Assembly (NCBI RefSeq): GCF_963921235.1
Contig: NC_086107.1
Coordinates: forward strand, 102,488,001 to 102,552,000
Direction of reading: 5' to 3'
Length of the DNA: 64,000 bases
Source: Mobula hypostoma
Taxonomy: Eukaryota
Shown here: one piece after another, positions 2,138-63,000 of the stretch
How the letters are laid out: each line of letters begins with the position of its first letter
Position numbering within the stretch: the first letter of the stretch is position 1
Notes under the pieces: model-generated
Told to the model about the DNA's origin: nothing
What the model saw: the letters and a program-made list of their open reading frames with translations, nothing else
Database searches by the model: none
Position numbers and translations under genes: made by a program

Positions 2138-2505
2138 TGTCCTGGAAAGGAAAGCCTCATCCTGGGAACAAATGTGATGGAGACGAAGGAACTGAGAAAA
2201 AGGAATAGCATTTTTACAGGAGACAGAGTGGGAAGAGGTATAATCAAGACAGCCTTGGGAATCGGTAGATTTACAATACAAAAGATGTTGGTAGATAGTT
2301 TGTCTCCAGAGATGGTGACAGATATTGAAAAAGGGGAGAGGGGTGTCAGAAATCAACCTAGTGAATTGAAGGGCAGGGTGGAAGTTGGAGGGAAAATTGA
2401 TGAAATTGATAAGCTCAACATGGATGCATGAAGCAGCACCAATGCAGTGGTCAATGTCGTGAAGGAAGAATTGGGGAGCATTACTAAGGAAGGCTTGAAC
2501 CATGG
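2138..2505 (-). mobile_element. Penelope-like element RT fragment
   Basis: ORF 2102-2503: DHCIGAASC..ELINFINFPSNFHPALQFT..LDYTSSH..CKNAIPFSQFLRLHHICS, typical of the PLE RT thumb region. Confidence 0.8.
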
Positions 2506-3609
2506 ACTTAGAACATGCTGCAGAATTATCCGATTCTAATCTTTAGAGCTGACTCCCCAATCTTGAGCACACAAGCCAGCAGAAATAATTTACCATCAGT
2601 GCATGATACCATGGAGTCGCAGACTCCCAGGACAATGACAATGGTTCCTGAACTGCAAACTCATCAGTTCAGTTGGGCCACAGGGCATTGCAGTGGGCAG
2701 AGGTCAAACAGCAAAGGTCAATGAGCAGAGGCCAAGTACAAGTGTGAGCATTGAGAAGTTTAACATTCATGGACACTGATCATTTCATTGAAACCTTCAG
2801 ACTGGCTCTCACCACCCACATGAATGCAGAAGCAATGAGGAGTACTGTAGAAAAATAAAAATTGTTTTGTATAAACAACCAATAAAGTGCTCTGAATTAT
2901 AGTGAGCCTACAGCGAGATCCTGAACATTTTATCTTGAAGTGCATAAACTAAATACTGTAGTGTTTGATAACACAAATAATCAGGATGTGTTAATAATAT
3001 GTTTGCTGAAGATATTTCCATTCTGAAATGTGATTTCAGTTTCCTTACAAACCAAAGAAATCATCGTCAATATTCCAGACGACAATTCCAGAAAACCAAG
3101 GCACTGTGTATGGGATCCAGTGATGGGACATTTCGTGTACAGAGATTTTACTTGCAGTGTGACTGCCACTTTAAAAGAACGAGTCATCTCCAAACCTGAA
3201 GGAAGCTTAGCCTGGAAATCAACATCATCACTATTATTAATTCTTCATTGCAGACAATGTCATGTCTCCTTAATACAGATGCCACTGGATCGTGGGGGCT
3301 TCTTCCTACAGATCCACTCATTGCTTCTAACACAATCGCTCTACATCTTAAAATCTAAATTACACTTTATTCTGCATCGTTTTACCTTGTTCTTCCTCGA
3401 TGCACCGTGCAATGAATGGATCTGTGTGAACAGTATGCAAGAAAAGCTTTTCACCGTAAACCAATTCCAAACCCAACTGCAGCCCTTCTAAAACAGCAGA
3501 TATACAGACTAAGCACAAGGGTCAGGGGATAAACACAAACCATTTAAGTACGCCAGCTCCACCTCACTCTCTGCCACGCCACTCTCTGTTCACGCAGTCT
3601 ACCACTGGT

Positions 3610-41830: not shown

Positions 41831-43992
41831 TCCCAGGAGGTTTAAGACAAGGTTGGATAGATTTGTGTATATTAGGGGAATTCGGGGTTATGGGGAAAAG
41901 CCAGATAGGTGGAGATGAGTCCATGGTCAGTTCAGCCATGATCTTATTGAATGGCAGAGCAGGCGCCAACGGGCCAGATGACCGACTCCTGCTCCTACTT
42001 CTTATGTTCTTATGAGTGGGTTGCATGATCCTTCAACATGGCAGCCATCTGCCCAGTTAACTCTTCAATCCCCAAACTGTGAACGTCTCCTCTGAGCTTG
42101 GTCCAGAACCCTGGTTTCAGCTTGTGGATAGCCATCTAGAGCTGCGAGTTCATTCTGCTGTAAAACCCATCACCAGTCGTACTTCTGTCCCTCTCCTTAC
42201 CAGGCACTAATCAGGTGTGTTATTGGTCAGTTCGATTGCTTCCTGCTCACCTGATTGGCTCCTTCAGTCCATATTGATGCAGCAGAGTCCAGTTTCTAGT
42301 ACGAGGGACGAACTGATGCTTGAATGATTTAAACGCCAGACCAGATGGATTGAAAAGGCTGGCTGTCGGGACCGGGGGCAAGGGTCGGGCCGATTCTGCT
42401 TGCTGCCCCTCAGTGTTTGCTCTGCTCTCTGCAGTGCTGAGGCTGTGGGCCTGCTCTGGCTTTGTGTCTGTGAGCTCCATGAAGGTTTGCTTCACTGTGT
42501 GATGAACTGAGGCTGAGGCTGTGGGCCTGCACTGGCTGCACTGGGCTTTACGTCTGCAAGCTCTGTGAAGGTTTGAACTGGGGCCGAGGCTGTAGGCCTG
42601 CTCCAGGCTCTGTCTCTATGGACTCACTTTCATGTAGAATGCTGTGGCTTGCTTTTATTGTTTGCACGATTTGTGTTTTTCCCCTCCTCTCTTGTTGCAC
42701 ATTGGGTGTTTGTTAGTCTTTCTTTAATGGGTTCTTTTGGGTTTCTTGTTTTGTGGCTGCCTGTAAGGAGACAAATCTCAAGGTTGTATGGTTGTATAAT
42801 TTATACGTACTTTGATATTAAATGTACTTTGAACTTTGAAACCCTCAGGAGTCGAGGCAGAATACAATGGGTTGACACTACTTTATTTATCATGGAGATG
42901 GCACCCTCAGCTCACCAAGTCTGCCCACACAGCAGCCTCACTTCCCACTCATTTTTTCCTGTAGTTGAGTGTCTGAGAAACACACACAGCAGGGAAACAG
43001 GCCCTTCAGCCCATCGAGTCCGTGCTGCCTATCAACCACCCATTGAGCCCATTTTTATTTTGCCCGCATTCTCAGCAGATCTAGCCTACCCCCACACCCC
43101 AGATTCTACCACTCACCTCCAGGAGTTTGTAGGGGGAGCTTGCAGTGGCCAATCAACCCTCCAGCTGGCCTACCTTTGGGAGGACCATCTGGAGGAGATG
43201 CTGCCTGATCTTCTGAGTCAGGATCTTTTTCTGTTTATCTTCCAAGTTTGGAATGGGCAGTGGGTGGAAGGAAGCTTGAGTGTAGAGTTAAAGATGTTAT
43301 TCTGTGGCTGAGGAGGAGATATTGTCTTGTGGCAGATTTAGACCATAACACCATAAGACATAGGAGCAGAAATAGGCCCTTTGGCCTATCAAGTCTGCCC
43401 CACCTTTTGATCATGGCTGATTTATTTTCCTTCTTAACCCCACTATCCTGCCTTCTGACCCAAACCTTTGATGCCTGTTATGTTTTGTAACTTTAAAACA
43501 TTAAACTAATTCGAAGAAAAGCACAGGAGTTCGAAATCCAGGTCTAACTTTGACTTTTACTTTAACCAAGGCGTGCATGTATCATGTGGTAATATGATGA
43601 CATATGCAATTACCATATTATCAAATGTAACCCAGAATTAATTTAAATGAACAAGAATGCTTAATCAAACAATATATATACAAGAGTATTTAATATTATT
43701 GAAATATTAAATACGTGGAGAATGCATCTCAGCTATATACACAGTATTTAATGCAACTACTATATACAAACATTCACAGCATAGTAAATTTTAAGTTCTC
43801 CCTTTTAGGCTGAAAGATTTCATCACTGTGAAGGTTTTCTTACTCTTGTGGGATAGTGTCCTTCCTGACAAAGGGGGATCCCCTCTGCTTGGCAGGTGAG
43901 ACTTGTGGCTGTGAAATAATCTCCGTGGTGGTTGTAGGAGTTGACTCAAAGACAGTAGGAAGTTGTTCTGACAGCTCTGGACACCTTTCTGC

Positions 43993-44416
43993 TCCTTCTT
44001 TCTCTGGATCTACTTTGATCCCTCTCATTTTCTTTCTCATGTTCCTTCTTTCTTTCAAACCAGCCTCTTTCTCATTCACCTCTTTCTCTCCATCTCTCCC
44101 TTCCTTTTTCTCCTTCTAGTTTGTGCACTTAGTTCACTGGAGTATCCTCCTATTAATCCTTCCATTGCTCCCTTTATGATCTGATCTCTCCTCTTAGTCT
44201 ACGCATCCACAACATCATCTGACGATTCCTCTGTTTTCGTATCTCCATTGACTCCTTTCTTTTTGGCCTTCCATTCATGCAGCTGGGTTTTGGTCTTTGC
44301 AGCTACTTTTACAAGCAGCTTTCAGTCTCCCATTTGAAGTTCATGCAATAACCTTAACGCTTCCAGAGTAGATCCTGGTTCTTTATACAAATTCCCAATA
44401 GTAGCAGCTTTCCTGA
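43993..44416 (-). pseudogene. RBM25: Captured RBM25 fragment, part 2 (RRM C-terminal half and start of the RE-rich region)
   Basis: SGKL..YKEPGSTLEALRLLHELQMGD*KLLVKVAAKTKTQLHEWKAKKK..TKRRDQII..YSSEL..KLEGEKG, versus recalled human RBM25 YKEPESTLRALRLLHDLQIGEKKLLVKVDAKTKAQLDEWKAKKK; stops and frameshifts present. Confidence 0.9.
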
Positions 44417-45222
44417 GTCAAAATCAAATCAAATCAAGTTTAATTGTCATTCAGACCATACACGGATACAGTCAAACGAGACAGTATTCCTTTGGGGCCA
44501 AGGTGCATAACAAGCATTCAAAATAGCGAGAGAGAGGAAAAAAAAACACATGAATAGTCCAAGTCCCTGAGCAACGTGCAAATTCGTGGTACAGTTCCTG
44601 GCAATCCAGCCTGTCATTCTATTGGTTGGACACTGGAGGGGAGCACTGACAGCAGAGGCCAGCTCCCAACCGAGCATGGACGCCACACTACACCGCCTCC
44701 TGTATTTTCTCACCTGGACTGCAACAGCAGGTAAGCCCGCAGCTTGAAGACTAGCCCTCACTAGAACCAAGGCCACGCTGCTGCCTCGTCACCTATCACC
44801 ACCGAACAAGGGAAACAGGCCTGCAGCATCTTACGTTATCAATGTCCATCAGGGTCTTGCAATCGCAAGAGAATTCTCCAAGTCAGTCACTGCACACTGC
44901 TTTCGTGCACCAACTCTGATGCCTTTGAGTAGCCGGCAGCAACAAGGTCTGCACCCAGGTCAGGTCCTCCGAACCATCTCCGGCCTGTCCGCCGGCTTCT
45001 CCTTCTCTGTCCCAAGTACCAGCTTCTCCTTCTCCAAACCGAGGGCTGGCTCCTTCGATACTCTGGCCAGCTGCTCTGAGCACCAAACATCTCACTGATG
45101 TGGTGGACCTTCTATACCCATTTTTCTTGGTGTCCACTATAGTCTTAAAAGAATACTTTTTAAAAAGAAAAATGCATCTTTGGTTGCCTCCTGAGAGGCC
45201 TTGCTTTCGAACACATTGCCAT

Positions 45223-45445
45223 CTTACCAGAAGCTTGTTGAACTTTCTTTCCTGCTTAAAACCAAGCCACATCTCACAAGTAACTGCCTGATTAACATAT
45301 CAGAATCTTTCTCAAGTATGTTGCCTACAAAAACTGTTGTAGTCGGACCGCTACTTTCGTCAGTTTCACAATCCCTCTGAGCAGCATGGTCCTTCCTTGG
45401 TTCAATATGCTTTCCAACCAGAGGCTCAGAGATTGACACCAATAC
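45223..45445 (-). pseudogene. RBM25: Captured RBM25 fragment, part 1 (RRM N-terminal half)
   Basis: VGKHIEPRKDH..DESSGPTTTVFVGNILEKDSDMLIRQLLVRCGLVLS, versus recalled human VGKHLGARKDH..DENCGPTTTVFVGNISEKASDMLIRQLLAKCGLVLS. Confidence 0.92.
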
Positions 45446-47596
45446 TTGTTTGTCCTCTGTAGGGCAAAGGTTTATGGTGTTCAGCTTGGAAACAGTTATG
45501 GAGAAATCCAGCACCTTTCTTAATTCACTTTCAATTGGCTTCATTGCAGGAGATATGGCATGCAACTTGTGGATGGATCTCCAATCACTTTGTAGATGTC
45601 TCAACCAATCACATCCCCAAAATGCTGGTCCTTCTGTTTTTACTACATACAAGCTCAATGCGGCTTGTTGGTTGTTGTATTTCACTGCCATGAATGTAAT
45701 TCTCAAAGGGGTTATCTTTTCTCCAGTATAAGTTCTTAGTTGGATCTTTGCAGGCTTCAGTTTAGTAGATTTGAAATGCCATTCAAACTCACTTTCTGGA
45801 ATGACTGAAACAGCTGAACCAGTGCCTAATTTCATTTTTAATTAATTTGCCGCTGTCTTCTGGCATAAGCCATATTGCTTGTCTCTTGCTAATTTTCACA
45901 TTGTAAATCTCAAGGCTACACAGTTCTGTGTCACTCTCATCATTGTCATATTTTTTCAACAGCGTACATATTAGTGCTCTTTTTGAAAATGCACTTAACT
46001 TTTCTCTTCACTGTGCAGGCCATTTATTTTTGTCTGCCAACATGCTCTTTGTATGTGTCCTATTTTGTTGCATTTTCTGCAAGTTTTACCTTTAAATCTG
46101 CATTTGTTTGGTCTATGTGAACCCCTGCCATCACAGTAACACAATTTGCTTGTCCAGGCTGGTTTCCGCTTAGACAATATAATTTGTTCACACTCACTTT
46201 TATTCCTGACGGCAACTCAATTGCATCCCTGTCTGCGGTTTCCATTGAAAGAGCGACTTCCACTGCTTTTTTAAATGTCAGTTGTGCTTCAGTTAGGAGT
46301 TGTTTTTGAAGGCTTTCTTGTAAGATTCCACAAACTAAACAATTTCTCAGTGCATCAAGGCCATTACCAAACTAACAATGTTCAGACAACCTCTTCAATT
46401 TAGTAATGTACATTGAAATGGACTCCCCTTATTTTTGATTCTATTTATGAAACCTAAAGTGTTCTGCAATCAACAATGGCTTCGGTTCTCAGTGTTCCTG
46501 CTTCACTCTTACAATATCAGCAAGGCTCATTTCTGCTGGTTTGGTTGGAGCAGTCAAACTTCGAAGCAAACTGTATGCCTTTAAACCTAATGTATTTAGC
46601 AAAATTGGTGCTCGCTTCTCATTGGCTGTTTCACTTGCTTCAAAATACTGTTCCAATAGTTCAGTATGCATGCGACAGTTATCTGTTGCGTAATCAAACT
46701 TGTCAATCTTTCCGATGTAGCCAGTCAATTCTGATTTTTTAATGATTATTGCCACCTGGTACTCACCCTTTATAAACCTGTAATTAATTACTTAAGTGAA
46801 CAAGAATGCTTAATCAAACTATATATATATACATACACAAGATTACTTTATTACAGTGTATTATTGAAATTTTAGATGCACAACAATGCCCTTGCTAATC
46901 AAGAACTCATCAACCTCTGCTTTAAATATACCCAATAACTTTACCTCCACAGTCGTCTGTGGCAATGAATTCCACAGATTCTCTAACCCTCTGACTAAAG
47001 AAATTCCTCCCCATTTCTGTTCTAAAGGGACATCCTTCTGTTCTGAGACTGTGATCCTAGACTCTCCCACTATAGGAAACATCCTCTCCACGTCCACTCT
47101 GTCTGGGCCTTTAAGTATTCAGTAAGTTTAAATGAGATCCCATTTCATTCTTCTAAACTCCAGCGAACACAGGTCCCAGAGCCATCAAATGCTCCTCGTA
47201 CATTAACCCTTTCATTCCCAGGGTTTACAGGCAGTCTTGCTGTTCTGGGCTTGGTGCCGAAAGGCCAAAGTGGAACATGTTCTCGGTATGGTATGTGCTG
47301 ACCTGTGCTTTTCAGACAAAAAGATGGTACGGTGTTGGAACAATGCTGCCCACAACTTGTTCCCGGACAGTGACTGAAAGACAGGCGCTTGCTGAATCAG
47401 GACAAAAGCAGGAAGCTGATTGTATCGGATACCAGCCGTAAACAACTGGAAATGGCTAACTCCCCGCACTGCCACCTGACCTCGAACTCCCTCAGTACAA
47501 ACTGTACCCTTCAGATAAACGCTGGCATGGCATCTGAAATAACAGCAGAAAATGCTGGCAACATTCCGAAGTTTCAGCCATCATCTATGGACAGAG

Positions 47597-48512
47597 TGAG
47601 GGGGGGAGGGAGAGGGAGAGAGGGGGAGGGAGAGAGGGAGAGGAGGAGAGAGGGGGAGGAGGAGAGGGGGAGAGGGAGAGAGGGAGAGGGAGAGAGGGGG
47701 AGGAGGAGAGGGAGAGGAGGAGAGGGGGAGGAGGAGAGGGGGAGGAGGAGAGGGGGAGGAGGAGAGGGGGAGGAGGAGAGGGGGAGGAGGAGAGGGGGAG
47801 GAGGAGAGGGGGAGAGGAGGAGAGGGGAGGGAGAGAGGGAGAGGAGGAGAGAGGGGGAGGAGGAGAGGGGGAGGAGGAGAGGGGGAGGAGGAGAGGGGGA
47901 GAGGAGGAGAGGGAGAGAGGAGGAGAGGGGAGGGAGAGAGGGAGAGGGAAAGAGGGGGAGAGGGAAGAGGGGAGAGGGGAGAGGGGAGGGGGAGGGGAGG
48001 GGGAGGGGAGGGGGAGGGAGAGGAGGAGAGGAGGAGAGAGGGGGAGGAGGAGAGGGGGGAGGGGGAGAGGGGGAAGGGGAGAGGGGGAAGGGGAGAGGGG
48101 GAAGGGGAGAGGGGGAAGGGGAGAGGGGGAAGGGGAGAGGGGGAAGGGGAGGGGGAGAGGGGGAAGGGGAGAGGGGGAAGGGGAGAGGGGGAAGGGGAGG
48201 GGGAGAGGGGGAAGGGGAGAGGGGGAGGGGAGGAGGAGAGGGGGAGGGGAAGAGGGAGTGGGGAGAGGGGGAGAGAGGAGGAGGAGAGAGAGGGGTGGAG
48301 AGAGAGGAGAGAAAGGGGTGGAGAGAGGAGAGGAGAGTGGGAGAGATTGTGGGAGAGGGGGAGAAAGAGTGTGGGAGGGAGAGAAGGAGGAGAGAGAGGG
48401 GTGGAGAGAGAGGAGAGAGGGTGTGGGAGAGAGAGAGGAGATAAAGGAGAAAGAATGTGGGAGAGAGATGGGTGAGAGGAGAGAGTGGGAGAGAGAGAGA
48501 AGAAAGAGAGGA
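47597..48512 (+). repeat. G/A-rich low-complexity polypurine tract
   Basis: About 920 bp of nearly pure G and A, with internal GGAGGAGAGGG and GGGGAAGGGGAGAG periodicities. Confidence 0.95.
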
Positions 48513-58905: not shown

Positions 58906-60036
58906 GTATTTGCGCATTTGTCCATCCCCCTTCCAGATTGTGTTAGTGGGGCTTAACTTTAGTTGTCTCATGTACGTCAAAACATACAGAGAAATGCACC
59001 GCTTTGTGTCAAATTAAATCAGCGGGGATTGTGCTAGGATTAGCCTGCACGACAAAGCCTGCCCACATTGCCAGCTCTAACTGTACGTCTTTGGAATGTG
59101 GGAGGAAACAGCAGCACCCGGAGGAAACCCACACCAGAACAGGGAGAACGTACAAACTCCTTACAGACAGTGGCAGGAATTGTACCCCATGGGCGATTGC
59201 TGGCACTGATGAAAAGGCTTGTCATATGAAGCGTGTTTGATGGCTCCAGGCCTGTACTCACTGGAATTCAGAAAAATGAGGTGTGACCTCATTGAACCCT
59301 ACCGAATGTTGAAAGGGTGTGATAGAGTGGATGTGGAGAGGGTGGGAGTGTCTAGGACCAGAGGGCACAGCCTCAGAATAGAGCGGCATCCTTTAAGAAT
59401 GGAGATGAGGAGGAATTTCTTTAGCCAGAGAGTTGTGAATCTGTGAAATTCTTTGCTGCAGGCGGCTATGGAGGTCAAGTCTTTATGTTTATTTAAGGCA
59501 GATTCTTGATTGTTCAGGGCATGAAGGGATACGGGGAGAAGGCAGGAGATTGGGGCTGAGGGGGGAAATTGGATCAGCTGTGATAGCAGACTCGATGGGG
59601 AAAATGGCCCAATTCTGCTCCTATATCTTATGGTCTTACACATTCATACATTAGTTCATTTATAGTCATTGTTCTTTATCAGTGCTTTTGATGTCGTTCA
59701 TTTCAGTACCATAGAGGTAGGGTAACTGTGTTTCTCTGTGATTTCCACCTATAAAATGGAACCTGTTTGTTAGCCTTGGACATCCTGTAGTGGAAGCAGA
59801 TTGCAGTTTGAGAGGAAATGTTTGCAAGACTCTGGGGAGAGGGCGGTTCAGTGGGTTAAGTGAACTGTGCTGGCACAGATAGGCTCTCTCAGTCTTTGTG
59901 TACACGACTGTGTGTCTGTGCATGCAGTTTGGTCATACGACAAAGATATGTGTGCTATCATTGCCCCAAACATACAAAAATAGACTTATTATTTGGTCAC
60001 AAAATGCCATAAGGGCATGGATAGAATTAATTCATA

Positions 60037-63000
60037 AGACCATAAGATATAGGAGCAGAATTAGGCCATTTGGCCCATTGAGTCTGCCCTGTCATTTCAT
60101 CATGGCTGATCCATTCCTCTCTCAACCACACTCTTCGGCCTTCTCGCTGTAACCTTTCATGCCCTGACTAATCAAGAATCTGTTAACCTACATCTTAAAT
60201 ACACCCAATGACCTGACCTCCATAGCCACTTCTGGCAAAGAATTCCACAGATTCACCACCCTCTGGCTAAAGAAATTCCTCATTGCCTCTGTTCTAAATG
60301 AACGTCCCTCTATTCTGAGGCTGTGCCCTTTGGTCCAAGACTCCCCCACCCCCATACATCCACTCTATCTAGGACTTTCTGCATTCAATCGGTTTCAATG
60401 AGATCCCACCTCATTTTTCTAAACTCCAGTGAGTAAAGACCCAGAACCATAAATTGTTCCTCATGTGACAAGTCTTTCATTCCCGGAATCATTCTTGTGA
60501 ACCTCCTCTGAACCCACTGTAAAGAGCACATCCTTTCTTAAAACTGCTCACGATACTCCAATGAGGCCTCACTAATGCCTTATAAAGCACCAGCATTACA
60601 TCCTTGCTTTATATTCTAGTGCTCTCAAATTGAATGCTAACATTGCATTCAACTTTCTCACCACCGACTCAACCAGCAAATTAACCTTCAGGGAATCCTG
60701 CACAAGGTCTCCCAAGTCCCTTTGCAACTCGGATTTAGAACTTTCTTTCTGTTTAGAAAATGTTATATGCTTTTATTCCTTCTACCAAAGTGCATGACCA
60801 TAATCTTCCTGTATTCCATCTGTCACTTCTTTGCCTATTTTCCTAATCTGTCTAAATCCTTCCGCAGCCTCCCTGCTCCCAGAACACTATCTCGCCTCCA
60901 CCTTTCCTGGTATCGTCCGTGAACTTGGCCACAAAGTTATTAAATCCATCATCGACATACAATATAAAAAGAGGCAGTCTCAACACAGATCCCTGTGGAA
61001 CACCTCTAGTCACCAGAAGCCATTAGAAAAGGTTCCCTTTATTCCCACTCTTTGCTTCTGTCCAATCAGCCAATGATCTATCCAAGCTAGTCTCTTTCCT
61101 GTAATACCATGGGCTCTTACCTTGTTAAGCAGTCTCATTGGTGGCATCTTGTCAAAGGCCTTCTGAAAATCCACGTACACAACATCCACCAATTCTCCTT
61201 TGTCTATCCCGCTTGTTATTTCCTCAAATAATTCCAACAGATTTGTCAGACAAAATTTCCTCTTAAGAGAACCCTGCTGACTTCAGTCTATTTTATCATG
61301 TGCCTCCAAGAAACTACATCCTTAACAATTGACTCTTACATCTTCCTAACAACTGAGGTCAGGCTCTCTCCCTCTTAAAGGGTGGAATGACATTTGCTAT
61401 CTTCTAGTCCTTCGGAACCATGCCCAAATCTAGTGATTCTTGAAAGATCATTACTAATGCCTCCAAAATCTCTTCAGCCACCTCTTTCAAGATCCTGGGT
61501 TATAGTCCATCTGGTCCAGGTGACTTATCTATCTTCAGACCTTTCAGTTTCCCAAGCACCTTCTTCTTAGTAATAACAAATACACTCACTTCTGCGCGCC
61601 CCCCCCCCAACACCCTTGAACCTCTTACTTCTTTTTTACTCTTTATATATCTAAAAAAAACTTTTTTTATCCTCTTTAATATTATTGGTTAGGTTACCTT
61701 CATATTTCATCTCTTCCCCTTTTATGACTTTACTAGTTGCCTTCTGTTGGTTTTTAAAAGTCTCCCAATCCTATAACTTCCCTCTAATTTTTGCTCTATT
61801 ATATGCCCTCTCTTTAGTTTTTATGCCATCTTTGACTTCTCTTGTTAGCCATAGTTGCCTAATCTTCCCTTTAGAATACTACTACTACTTTGGTATGTAT
61901 CTATCCAGTGCCTTCCGAATTGCTGCCAGAAACTCCAGCCATTGCCATCTTCCTTACTAGTGTTCCCTTCCAATCATTTTTGGCCAGCTCCTCTCTCATG
62001 CTTCTGTTATTCACTTTATGCCACTATAATACTGATAATCTGACTTCAGCTTCTCCCTTTAAAATTGCAGGATGAATTCTATCATGTTATGATCATTGTC
62101 TCCTTAGGGTTCCTTTACCTTAAGCTCCCCAATCAAATCCAGTTCATTACACAACACCCAATTCAAAATAACTGATTCCCTAGTGGACTCAACCACAACC
62201 TGCTCTTAAAAAGCCATCATGGGGCATTCTACAATTTCTCTTTCTTGGGATCCAGCACCAACCTGATTTTCCTCAATCTACCTACATATTGAAATCCCCC
62301 ATGACCATTGTAACATTGTTCTTTTGACATGCTCTTTCTATCTCCATTTGCAATTTGCAGTCCACATCCTGGCAACTGTTCAGAGGCCCAGCAAGGTCAT
62401 TTTACCCTTGTAGTTTCTTAACTCTATCCACAAGGATTCCACATCTTCTGATCCTATGTCACCTCTTTCTAAGGATTTGATATAATTTTTTAACCAACAG
62501 AGCCACACCACCCGCTCGGCATACCTGCCTGTCCTTTCAATACAATCTTAAGCTCCAAACTATTATCTTCTTTCAGCTAAGACTTCGTGATGCCCACAAC
62601 ATCATACCTGCCAATCTCTAACTGCACTACAAGATCATCTCCTTATTCGGTATACTGCATGCATTCAAATTTAACACATTCAGTCCTGTATTCATCCCCC
62701 ATTTTGATTTCGTCTCCCTTTTACACTGCAAGTTATCACACTGCCTGCAATTTTGCCTTATCATCAGCCTGTCCTTTTTGACATTTTCACTACACACTGC
62801 CTTTACTTGTAAACCGACAGCCCTATCCTCAGCCCTATGAATCCCAGTTCCCATCCCCTTGACAGTTAGCTTAGGACTTCTCAAACGGCTCTACCAAGCC
62901 TACCTGAAAGGATATTGGTGCCCCATGGGTTCAGGTGTAACCTATCCCTTTTGTAGAGGTCGTACCTTCCCCCAGAAGAGATCCCAATGATCCAGAAATC

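Follow-up and report, generated by a model that had tools for sequence, protein, structure and literature searches.

Acutely transforming retroviruses, which carry v-onc genes, are replication-defective, hold spliced host complementary DNA (cDNA) in place of pol and in frame with gag, and depend on a helper. In the present study, we analysed a 64-kb stretch of the Mobula hypostoma genome (64,000 nucleotides, hereafter the window), in which a long terminal repeat (LTR) element of Ty3/Gypsy type, at 43476-46885 on the minus strand, holds a fragment of the splicing-factor gene RBM25 in place of most of pol. The element resembles those retroviruses in being defective, in carrying spliced host cDNA for pol as a gag fusion and in its probable helper dependence. 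It differs from them in having no env and no sign of infection, in the nature of its cargo (a splicing-factor fragment), in its germ-line spread and in its two junctions, both of which look like template switches and not like a 5' junction made by read-through or deletion. We conclude that the window copy is very probably an old, dead member of a non-autonomous Ty3/Gypsy-type family, which arose by a double template switch onto spliced RBM25 messenger RNA (mRNA) and then spread.

LTR-mediated retroposition has been described by a double template switching model, with a median microsimilarity of 6 bp at the fusion points (Tan et al. 2016, Genome Res, PMC5131818). In that report, as at our locus, a partial copy of a spliced mRNA replaces the internal open reading frame (ORF) of an LTR element while both LTRs are kept, microsimilarity is found at both fusions (here 7-9 and 9 nt), poly(A) is absent, the 3' end of the cargo is cut short, and the chimera may undergo "secondary retroposition". 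The chimeras of that report are single- or few-copy and mostly young, whereas the family described here is old, has at least 1,063 junction copies and carries its cargo in frame with gag and protease (PR). Maize Bs1 (PMC13317346 and PMC5131818) is likewise a non-autonomous LTR element with host cDNA fragments in place of pol; it is a plant element with 1-5 copies and pieces of three genes, whereas the family described here belongs to a vertebrate, draws on a single gene and exceeds 1,000 copies. The mechanism is already known, and the scale of amplification is unusual. No report of an RBM25-carrying family was found in the literature on RBM25 with LTR retrotransposons or sharks, on Gypsy elements that acquired an RRM, or in elasmobranch transposon surveys, Repbase-type libraries lying outside this search.

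Structure of the element in the window

The element was recognised as a single LTR element whose order on the minus strand is gag, zinc knuckle, protease, RBM25 sequence, the end of pol and the 3' LTR. Its features are as follows; L numbers designate loci taken from the genome and P numbers designate database proteins.

43471-43475, no strand: left copy of the target-site duplication ATGCC; the uninterrupted repeat paralogue at 60120-60210 has a single ATGCC
43476-43725, minus strand: 3' LTR, about 250 bp, ending ...AAAACATAACA in element sense, first bases degraded here; length from L025 (2619-2867), terminus motif from other copies
43750-43993, minus strand: pol C-terminal tail, downstream of the integrase C-terminal domain; 74-84% identical to L056 1702-1958
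43985-43993, minus strand: 3' junction zone, RBM25 cDNA to pol tail, in the microsimilarity GAGAAGAAA; from comparison of host, family and pol
43994-44416, minus strand: distal RBM25 cargo, host cDNA 312-609, 799-889 and 1067-1093 (end of exon C, exons D, E, G and H, with internal deletions); from cDNA alignment
44417-45219, minus strand: nested 803-bp retroposon of non-LTR type, private to this locus; matched by 0/29 family loci
45220-45503, minus strand: proximal RBM25 cargo, made up of the final bases of exon 2, the 48-nt cassette exon, exon B, in which the RRM begins, and exon C; from alignment to the spliced host cDNA
45497-45506, minus strand: 5' junction zone, pol (start of the reverse transcriptase region) to RBM25 cDNA, in the microsimilarity TGCCACA, a motif degraded here; from comparison with pol relatives and exon 2
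45504-46605, minus strand: gag, CCHC knuckles at roughly 46040-46087 and protease (LGTGSAVS at roughly 45815-45830), broken by frameshifts and stops; aligned with P0123 residues 3-375
46775-46885, minus strand: 5' LTR remnant consisting of just the initial 111 bp (TGTTGTG...); by comparison with other copies, the remaining LTR sequence, the primer-binding site (PBS) and the leader have been deleted
46886-46890, no strand: right copy of the target-site duplication ATGCC; from the same paralogue comparison

Read on the plus strand, the element starts with TGTTATG at 43476 and ends with ACAACA at 46885; read on the minus strand, it starts with TGTTGTG at 46885 and ends with ...AAAACATAACA at 43476, giving TG..CA (TGTT...AACA) ends. 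It was observed that the uninterrupted paralogue of the flanking repeat has one ATGCC exactly at the flank joint, as expected when one duplicate is removed; therefore the element ends and the 5-bp duplication are real, as a sequence-only reading of the window had claimed. The shared LTR sequence in that reading is also real but poor, with identities of 95% in a block of 38 nt and 89% in one of 19 nt, and with 78 matches in 105 aligned columns.

The coding content was compared with P0123, a database polyprotein of 937 aa with gag, PR and reverse transcriptase (RT) as well as ribonuclease H (RNase H). In the whole window, P0123 matched with residues 3-375 only, up to LDGAT, at 46605-45491, and residues 376-937 (RT and RNase H) had no match anywhere in the 64 kb. 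These results indicated that gag, knuckles and protease are present and that RT and RNase H are absent, which bears out the earlier statement that no RT, RNase H or integrase (IN) core is visible. The zinc knuckle scored 20.3 bits, just under the Pfam cut-off of 20.8, and nearly no Pfam matches were obtained on the broken ORFs of the window element. The Gypsy-type pol order PR-RT-RH-IN was seen only in relatives, the window element itself having no RT, RH or IN; the window copy is a non-autonomous Ty3/Gypsy-type derivative and not an autonomous member.

The RBM25 cargo is a fragment of spliced mRNA

The RBM25-like sequence was confirmed with the gar RBM25 protein (P0013), which matches the window at 45445-45254 and 44387-44118. 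The cargo starts near 45503, about 60 bp further upstream than the 45445 first proposed, and the two blocks of the sequence-only reading are parts of one cargo: the gap between them is the nested 803-bp retroposon, and the original cargo comprised 1,072 nt including the ER-rich region. When the genome was searched with gar RBM25, all 54 scored matches were intron-less stretches. Open frames that cross the junction measure 193-197 aa in L017, L025 and L028. The frame of L026, at 228 aa, leads from the protease end into the cargo, with an RBM25 protein as its best match (E = 1.5e-57), 59-74% identity among the top matches and the name RBM25 on nearly all of the 120 matches listed. In addition, RRM_1 (Pfam) was found in family cargo at 29.2 bits against a cut-off of 20.7.

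The host RBM25 is a single multi-exon locus at C1:99791418-99840648. Its PWI-coding end occurs at one genome place only (C1:99791418-99802552), and further separate exons extend up to C1:99840648. The cargo matches successive host exons at 80-91% DNA identity, and the introns of 1.7-8.6 kb are missing. We built the host cDNA by joining the exons with a script, every exon being flanked by AG and GT, and aligned 30 copies (29 fetched loci and the window copy) to it. The cargo starts at cDNA positions 41-47 in all 30 copies, and at position 41 in 21 of them. All five exon joints were crossed within one alignment in 22/30 copies, so that the exon-exon junctions proposed as a check are present in the cargo together with residues specific to the host. 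Position 1112 was reached by three copies (L009, L020 and L024), and the exon coding DDISAMEMEE... was kept in L005 and L027 and in part in L029; the founder cargo was therefore cDNA 41-1112 (1,072 nt). Most copies, including the window copy, later lost pieces of the low-complexity ER-rich stretch. Skipping of the exon coding DDISAMEMEEDKRDLISREISKFRDTHK in the captured mRNA was considered and rejected, since L005 and L027 keep this exon and L029 keeps part of it. The C-terminal PWI domain is absent from the cargo, which stops at position 1112 in the ER-rich part; thus the cargo is a fragment and not a copy of the whole RBM25 gene. No poly(A) or other LINE-type signature (long interspersed nuclear element) was found at the cargo, which ends mid-exon.

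The cargo contains the 48-nt cassette exon (VSMLYTMNRCPTEGKQ), and the same exon is found in P0124, an RBM25-like isoform of another shark. In the host gene this in-frame exon lies at G000:C1:99832633-99832586, between exon 2 and the first RRM exon, and its peptide is the start of the annotated isoform P0124. The residues HAAQRNRESDESSG are common to the family and host RBM25, whereas P0124 has HSGQRNRDNDENSG there; the Heptranchias RBM25-like protein is without residues that the cargo shares with the host gene. These host-specific residues suggest that the capture took place on the host's own branch. As a separate observation, LTR-like pieces of the element group lie at G000:C1:99876646-99876890 and 99906403-99906635, approximately 36 and 66 kb upstream of the first coding RBM25 exon found.

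Both junctions lie in short microsimilarities

The 5' junction was resolved by comparing the parent element, the family and the host. In short form, the parent reads GATGATGCCACAGCAGTGTTC, the family reads GATGATGCCACAACTGTCTCC, and the host reads CCTGCCACAACT/GTCTCC, where the slash marks the joint of exon 2 with the 48-nt exon. At greater length, the parent reads ...GATGATGCCACAGCAGTGTTCAAGG (LDDATAVFKDG, continuing into RT), the family ...GATGATGCCACAACTGTCTCCATGC and the spliced host joint ...CCTGCCACAACT/GTCTCCATGC. The comparison places the presumed 5' switch in TGCCACA, 3-10 nt inside exon 2, with a microsimilarity of 7 nt, or 9 nt with pol of the L049 type. The switch falls in the same codon phase; therefore RBM25 is in frame with gag-PR. 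The short forms at the 3' junction are GGAGAAGAAAAGGGAT in the host, GGAGAAGAAAGGTGTCC in the family and TTAGAGAAGAAAGGTGTCC in pol; the longer ones are ...GATCCAG/AGAGAAAAGCCGAGAAAAGGAGAAGAAAAGGGAT in host mRNA, ...GGAGAAGAAAGGTGTCCAGAGCTGTCAG in the family and ...GTTAGAGAAGAAAGGTGTCCAGAGCTG in pol. The 9-nt microsimilarity GAGAAGAAA lies 28 nt into an RBM25 exon. With regard to a possible assembly artefact, contigs of one organism (A) span both junctions without a difference.

The chimera is a high-copy family

All family searches were made in the window's own 3.48-Gb genome, where first-look candidates were collected, a subset was scored and 29 related loci were fetched. With 201 bases around the protease/RBM25 boundary as the query, 2,333 first-look candidates were obtained, and all 40 that were scored showed 83-100% identity over essentially the full length. 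The layout gag-PR, RBM25, tail and LTR was shared by 29/29 fetched loci, each of which also holds the 22-nt 5'-junction word with at most five changes (exact in 11). Genome-wide, this word was found at 1,063 places with at most two mismatches (553 forward and 510 reverse), compared with 0 for the reversed control. For the RT-bearing parent, the equivalent word had 2,223 matches and its control 0, so the junction count of the chimera is about half that of the parental junction word. The copies are spread over many contigs in both orientations, and beyond the ends of the 3' LTRs the fetched loci have unrelated flanks. Collectively, the junction that the sequence-only reading had proposed to look up elsewhere is multi-copy and is followed by different 3' LTR flanks. 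The proposed family "spreading RBM25 RRM copies" exists and has a common junction, but the statement holds only for copies that are long dead. Overall, the sequence-only interpretation is largely borne out, every check that it proposed having turned out in its favour.

Sites required for LTR replication have been retained outside the window. A PBS-like TGGTGATGAGGTA, 1 nt past the 5' LTR, is conserved in 9 loci, the window copy having lost its PBS, and the polypurine tract (PPT) AGGAAGGAG stands directly before the 3' LTR (AGGAAGGAG/TGTTGTG) in L025 and L006. A scan of the region for transfer RNA (tRNA) found no genes. In one further copy (L004, at 2343-3200 and, C-terminal part, 1705-2355), the cargo is cut off by a non-LTR element with an endonuclease-looking open frame of 286 codons, and the adjoining frame has a weak GDSL-like Pfam match.

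RT-bearing relatives and the pol tail

The tail of the window element, which had been read as the C-terminal end of pol, is homologous to relatives that carry RT, RNase H and parts of integrase. L056 has the order RT, RT_RNaseH, Integrase_H2C2 zinc finger, tail and LTR, and in L057 the integrase C-terminal region (...HNDQLRRAESIVREERCPELSE) continues straight into the tail. These arrangements indicated that the tail is true pol. P0123 has the architecture gag-PR-RVT_1-RT_RNaseH. The gag-PR DNA is common to the family and the RT-bearing L043, L044, L045 and L052 (partly also L049 and L053) at 74-87%, exactly up to window position 45506. Relatives of this kind share gag-PR, the pol tail and the LTR with the RBM25 family and have RT at the place of the cargo. 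With respect to the proposed check for an autonomous Gypsy element with the same LTRs, RT-bearing relatives were found, and none of the eight sampled is intact. The word at the start of the tail had 1,282 genome matches; when the 100 listed matches were sorted by eye, approximately 55 had pol, 40 had RBM25 and 5 had integrase zinc-finger context upstream. The sequence downstream of L043 (L055) is a truncated element in which no tail or LTR was found.

A lineage of the same element group has RT and RNase H without an integrase core (L056 1545-1760; L049, minus strand, about 382-420). In this lineage the integrase zinc finger (...CQHIQ) meets the pol tail at AGAAGAAAGG, the purine-rich site at which the RBM25 cargo is joined too; possible readings are repeated switching at one site and recombination between the two lineages. 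Another Gypsy lineage of this clade (L046-L051 and L054) is far better preserved, with open frames of up to 573 codons in the fetched loci; it is abundant in the genome and has no gag DNA in common with the RBM25 family.

Age of the insertion and its presence in other organisms

The copies show 80.8-89.7% identity to the host cDNA (mean 85.8%; window copy 87.3%), and no other copy exceeds 85% identity to the junction stretch of the window copy. Contigs of a second organism (B) lie on this very copy in five pieces, with 16 differences in 980 bases, and one of the pieces bridges the edge of the nested insert at 45219/45220. Therefore both insertions predate the split of A and B; the window copy is old and dead and is held by the sister species too. 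Contigs of a third organism (C) gave paralogue-level matches only, and no listed contig of this organism bridges a junction. Run X22, which is labelled "RNA" by guess, has contigs on the cargo and gag at approximately 88-90% identity, a level that does not assign them to the family, host mRNA or DNA carry-over.

Proposed origin and alternative explanations

We propose that the founder arose once, when RT switched from the RNA of a parent element to spliced host RBM25 mRNA and back during reverse transcription. Copying from the 3' end, RT would have left the pol tail at GAGAAGAAA, entering the mRNA 28 nt into an RBM25 exon, and would then have copied 1,072 nt of the mRNA toward its 5' end, through the ER-rich region, the RRM, the 48-nt cassette exon and the terminal 10 nt of exon 2, before returning onto pol at TGCCACA, just past the protease. 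The product would have been LTR-PBS-gag-PR-RBM25(about 357 codons)-pol tail-PPT-LTR, in which RBM25 continues the gag-PR frame and RT, RNase H and integrase are lost. Such a chimera would have kept the LTRs, PBS, PPT and leader and made more than 1,000 onward copies, presumably by enzymes supplied in trans. Since it has no RT, RNase H or integrase, relatives would have had to supply the enzymes, most obviously the RT-bearing lineage, whose gag-PR, tail and LTR are homologous. The window copy probably inserted into a high-copy repeat with a 5-bp duplication and later lost part of its 5' LTR and the PBS, received the 803-bp retroposon and decayed. Two microsimilarities, truncation of the mRNA at both ends, the lack of poly(A) and the retained LTRs, PBS, PPT and leader form the signature of LTR-mediated retroposition by double template switching, and maize Bs1 displays these features as well (PMC13317346 and PMC5131818).

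Several points weigh against this account. Template switches are not directly observable, and the microsimilarities would also fit microhomology joining at the DNA level. Mobilisation in trans is something that we infer, and the eight RT-bearing relatives sampled (L043, L044, L045, L049, L052, L053, L056 and L057) include no intact element and no integrase core. The copy counts, which come from short words, are lower bounds. The two LTRs of the window copy agree in only about 74% of 105 columns, so that the proposed pairing of the ends rests mainly on the duplication and the family alignment. In a search for duplications at L025 and L006 the 5' LTR head was not found, and a duplication is established for the window copy only.

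Other explanations of the locus were weighed against a double template switch. A processed RBM25 pseudogene made by a LINE might have landed here in a dead Gypsy element, as a one-off without a family. Retrocopies are common, the genome has many non-LTR elements, and one of them, of 803 bp, did land inside this copy; however, the same junction stands at 1,063 genome places and in 29/29 loci, the cargo is truncated mid-exon at both ends and has no poly(A), and it replaces RT-RH-IN instead of interrupting them. The poly(A) and LINE signature that would point to such an event is missing, and we consider this origin extremely improbable. The chance that the RBM25-like part is a native, ancient domain of the Gypsy lineage is equally minute: it is in frame with gag-PR and in all family copies, as such a domain would be, but its DNA is 81-91% identical to host exons and collinear with the spliced mRNA, it holds residues in common with the host gene that are missing from the Heptranchias RBM25-like protein, and RT-bearing relatives have RT at that place.

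Two further explanations are a little less remote, although we judge both to be very unlikely. One holds that the 5' junction was made by splicing, in a read-through transcript of an element lying in an RBM25 intron, from a cryptic donor in pol to the acceptor of the 48-nt exon, with template switching at the 3' junction only, as in classical oncogene capture. In BLAST, host homology had seemed to start with precisely the first base of the 48-nt exon, and a GT lies just past the break in pol. The canonical exon 2, however, ends ...CCTGCCACAACT/gtaagt; therefore the family word TGCCACAACT/GTCTCC is the exact spliced joint of exon 2 with the 48-nt exon, and its T occurs in no sampled pol. ACTGT or a one-base variant of it was present in 29/29 loci and ACAGT in none, which leaves the break 3-10 nt inside exon 2, within TGCCACA. 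The other explanation, for which the odds are similarly poor, is that the chimera multiplied by duplication at the DNA level or within a larger composite repeat and not by retrotransposition. The target duplication was examined successfully at the window copy only, which leaves room for this idea; against it stand the distribution of copies over many contigs and both orientations (553 forward, 510 reverse), their ending at the LTR terminus with unrelated flanks, the conserved PBS and PPT, and the precise 5-bp duplication with its empty-site paralogue at the window copy.

Under double template switching, a role for the cargo itself may also be considered. A Gag-PR-RRM/ER-rich fusion protein might have helped its own RNA to compete for the particles or RT of the parent, or to escape control of splicing or polyadenylation through contacts with the U1 small nuclear ribonucleoprotein (snRNP). 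We regard such a helper function as unlikely. If true, it could explain why the chimera reached about half the copy number of its parent while other known LTR-borne retrocopies have 1-5 copies, and the family would then have parasitised a retrotransposon with the help of an RNA-binding domain stolen from the host. Whether a stolen RNA-binding domain aids the spread of a parasite is a testable question.

The chimeras that we found in print remain single or few-copy, whereas here a fragment of an essential splicing factor is found at more than 1,000 places of a vertebrate genome. With both presumed template-switch points marked to the base, the family offers a natural data set with high replication on what a non-autonomous LTR element requires for mobilisation. 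It also carries a warning for annotators: thousands of "RBM25-like" RRM matches in such genomes are transposon cargo and not gene duplicates.

Nested retroposon and neighbouring sequences

The 803-bp piece inside the cargo has sharp edges in the family alignment, which ends exactly at 44416 in 10/29 loci and starts at 45219-45231 in 25/29. As none of the 29 loci matches 44417-45219, this piece is a later insertion private to the locus. Its target duplication is approximately 12 bp (44405-44416 and 45220-45231), and host cDNA 312-323 is accordingly aligned twice. The retroposon lies on the same strand as the element and has a short TTTGA-type repeat at its 3' end; no tRNA-like head was detected by ARAGORN. 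Its own family comprises at least 3,514 first-look candidates at 73-78% identity, with a fixed 3' end and variable 5' starts. A retained GT..AG intron was also considered for this gap and rejected, because family copies join 44416 directly to 45220 and the insert, flanked by a duplication of about 12 bp, is a member of a repeat family of its own.

On the plus strand at 47374-48444, a stop-free frame of 356 codons consists almost wholly of G, E and R codons; it is a GA-rich simple repeat and probably no gene. The host site of the element is a very high-copy repeat (43300-43475 and 46886-47100), with a paralogue 13 kb away at 60033-60307. The summed contig depth of this flanking repeat is 10-100 times that of the element.

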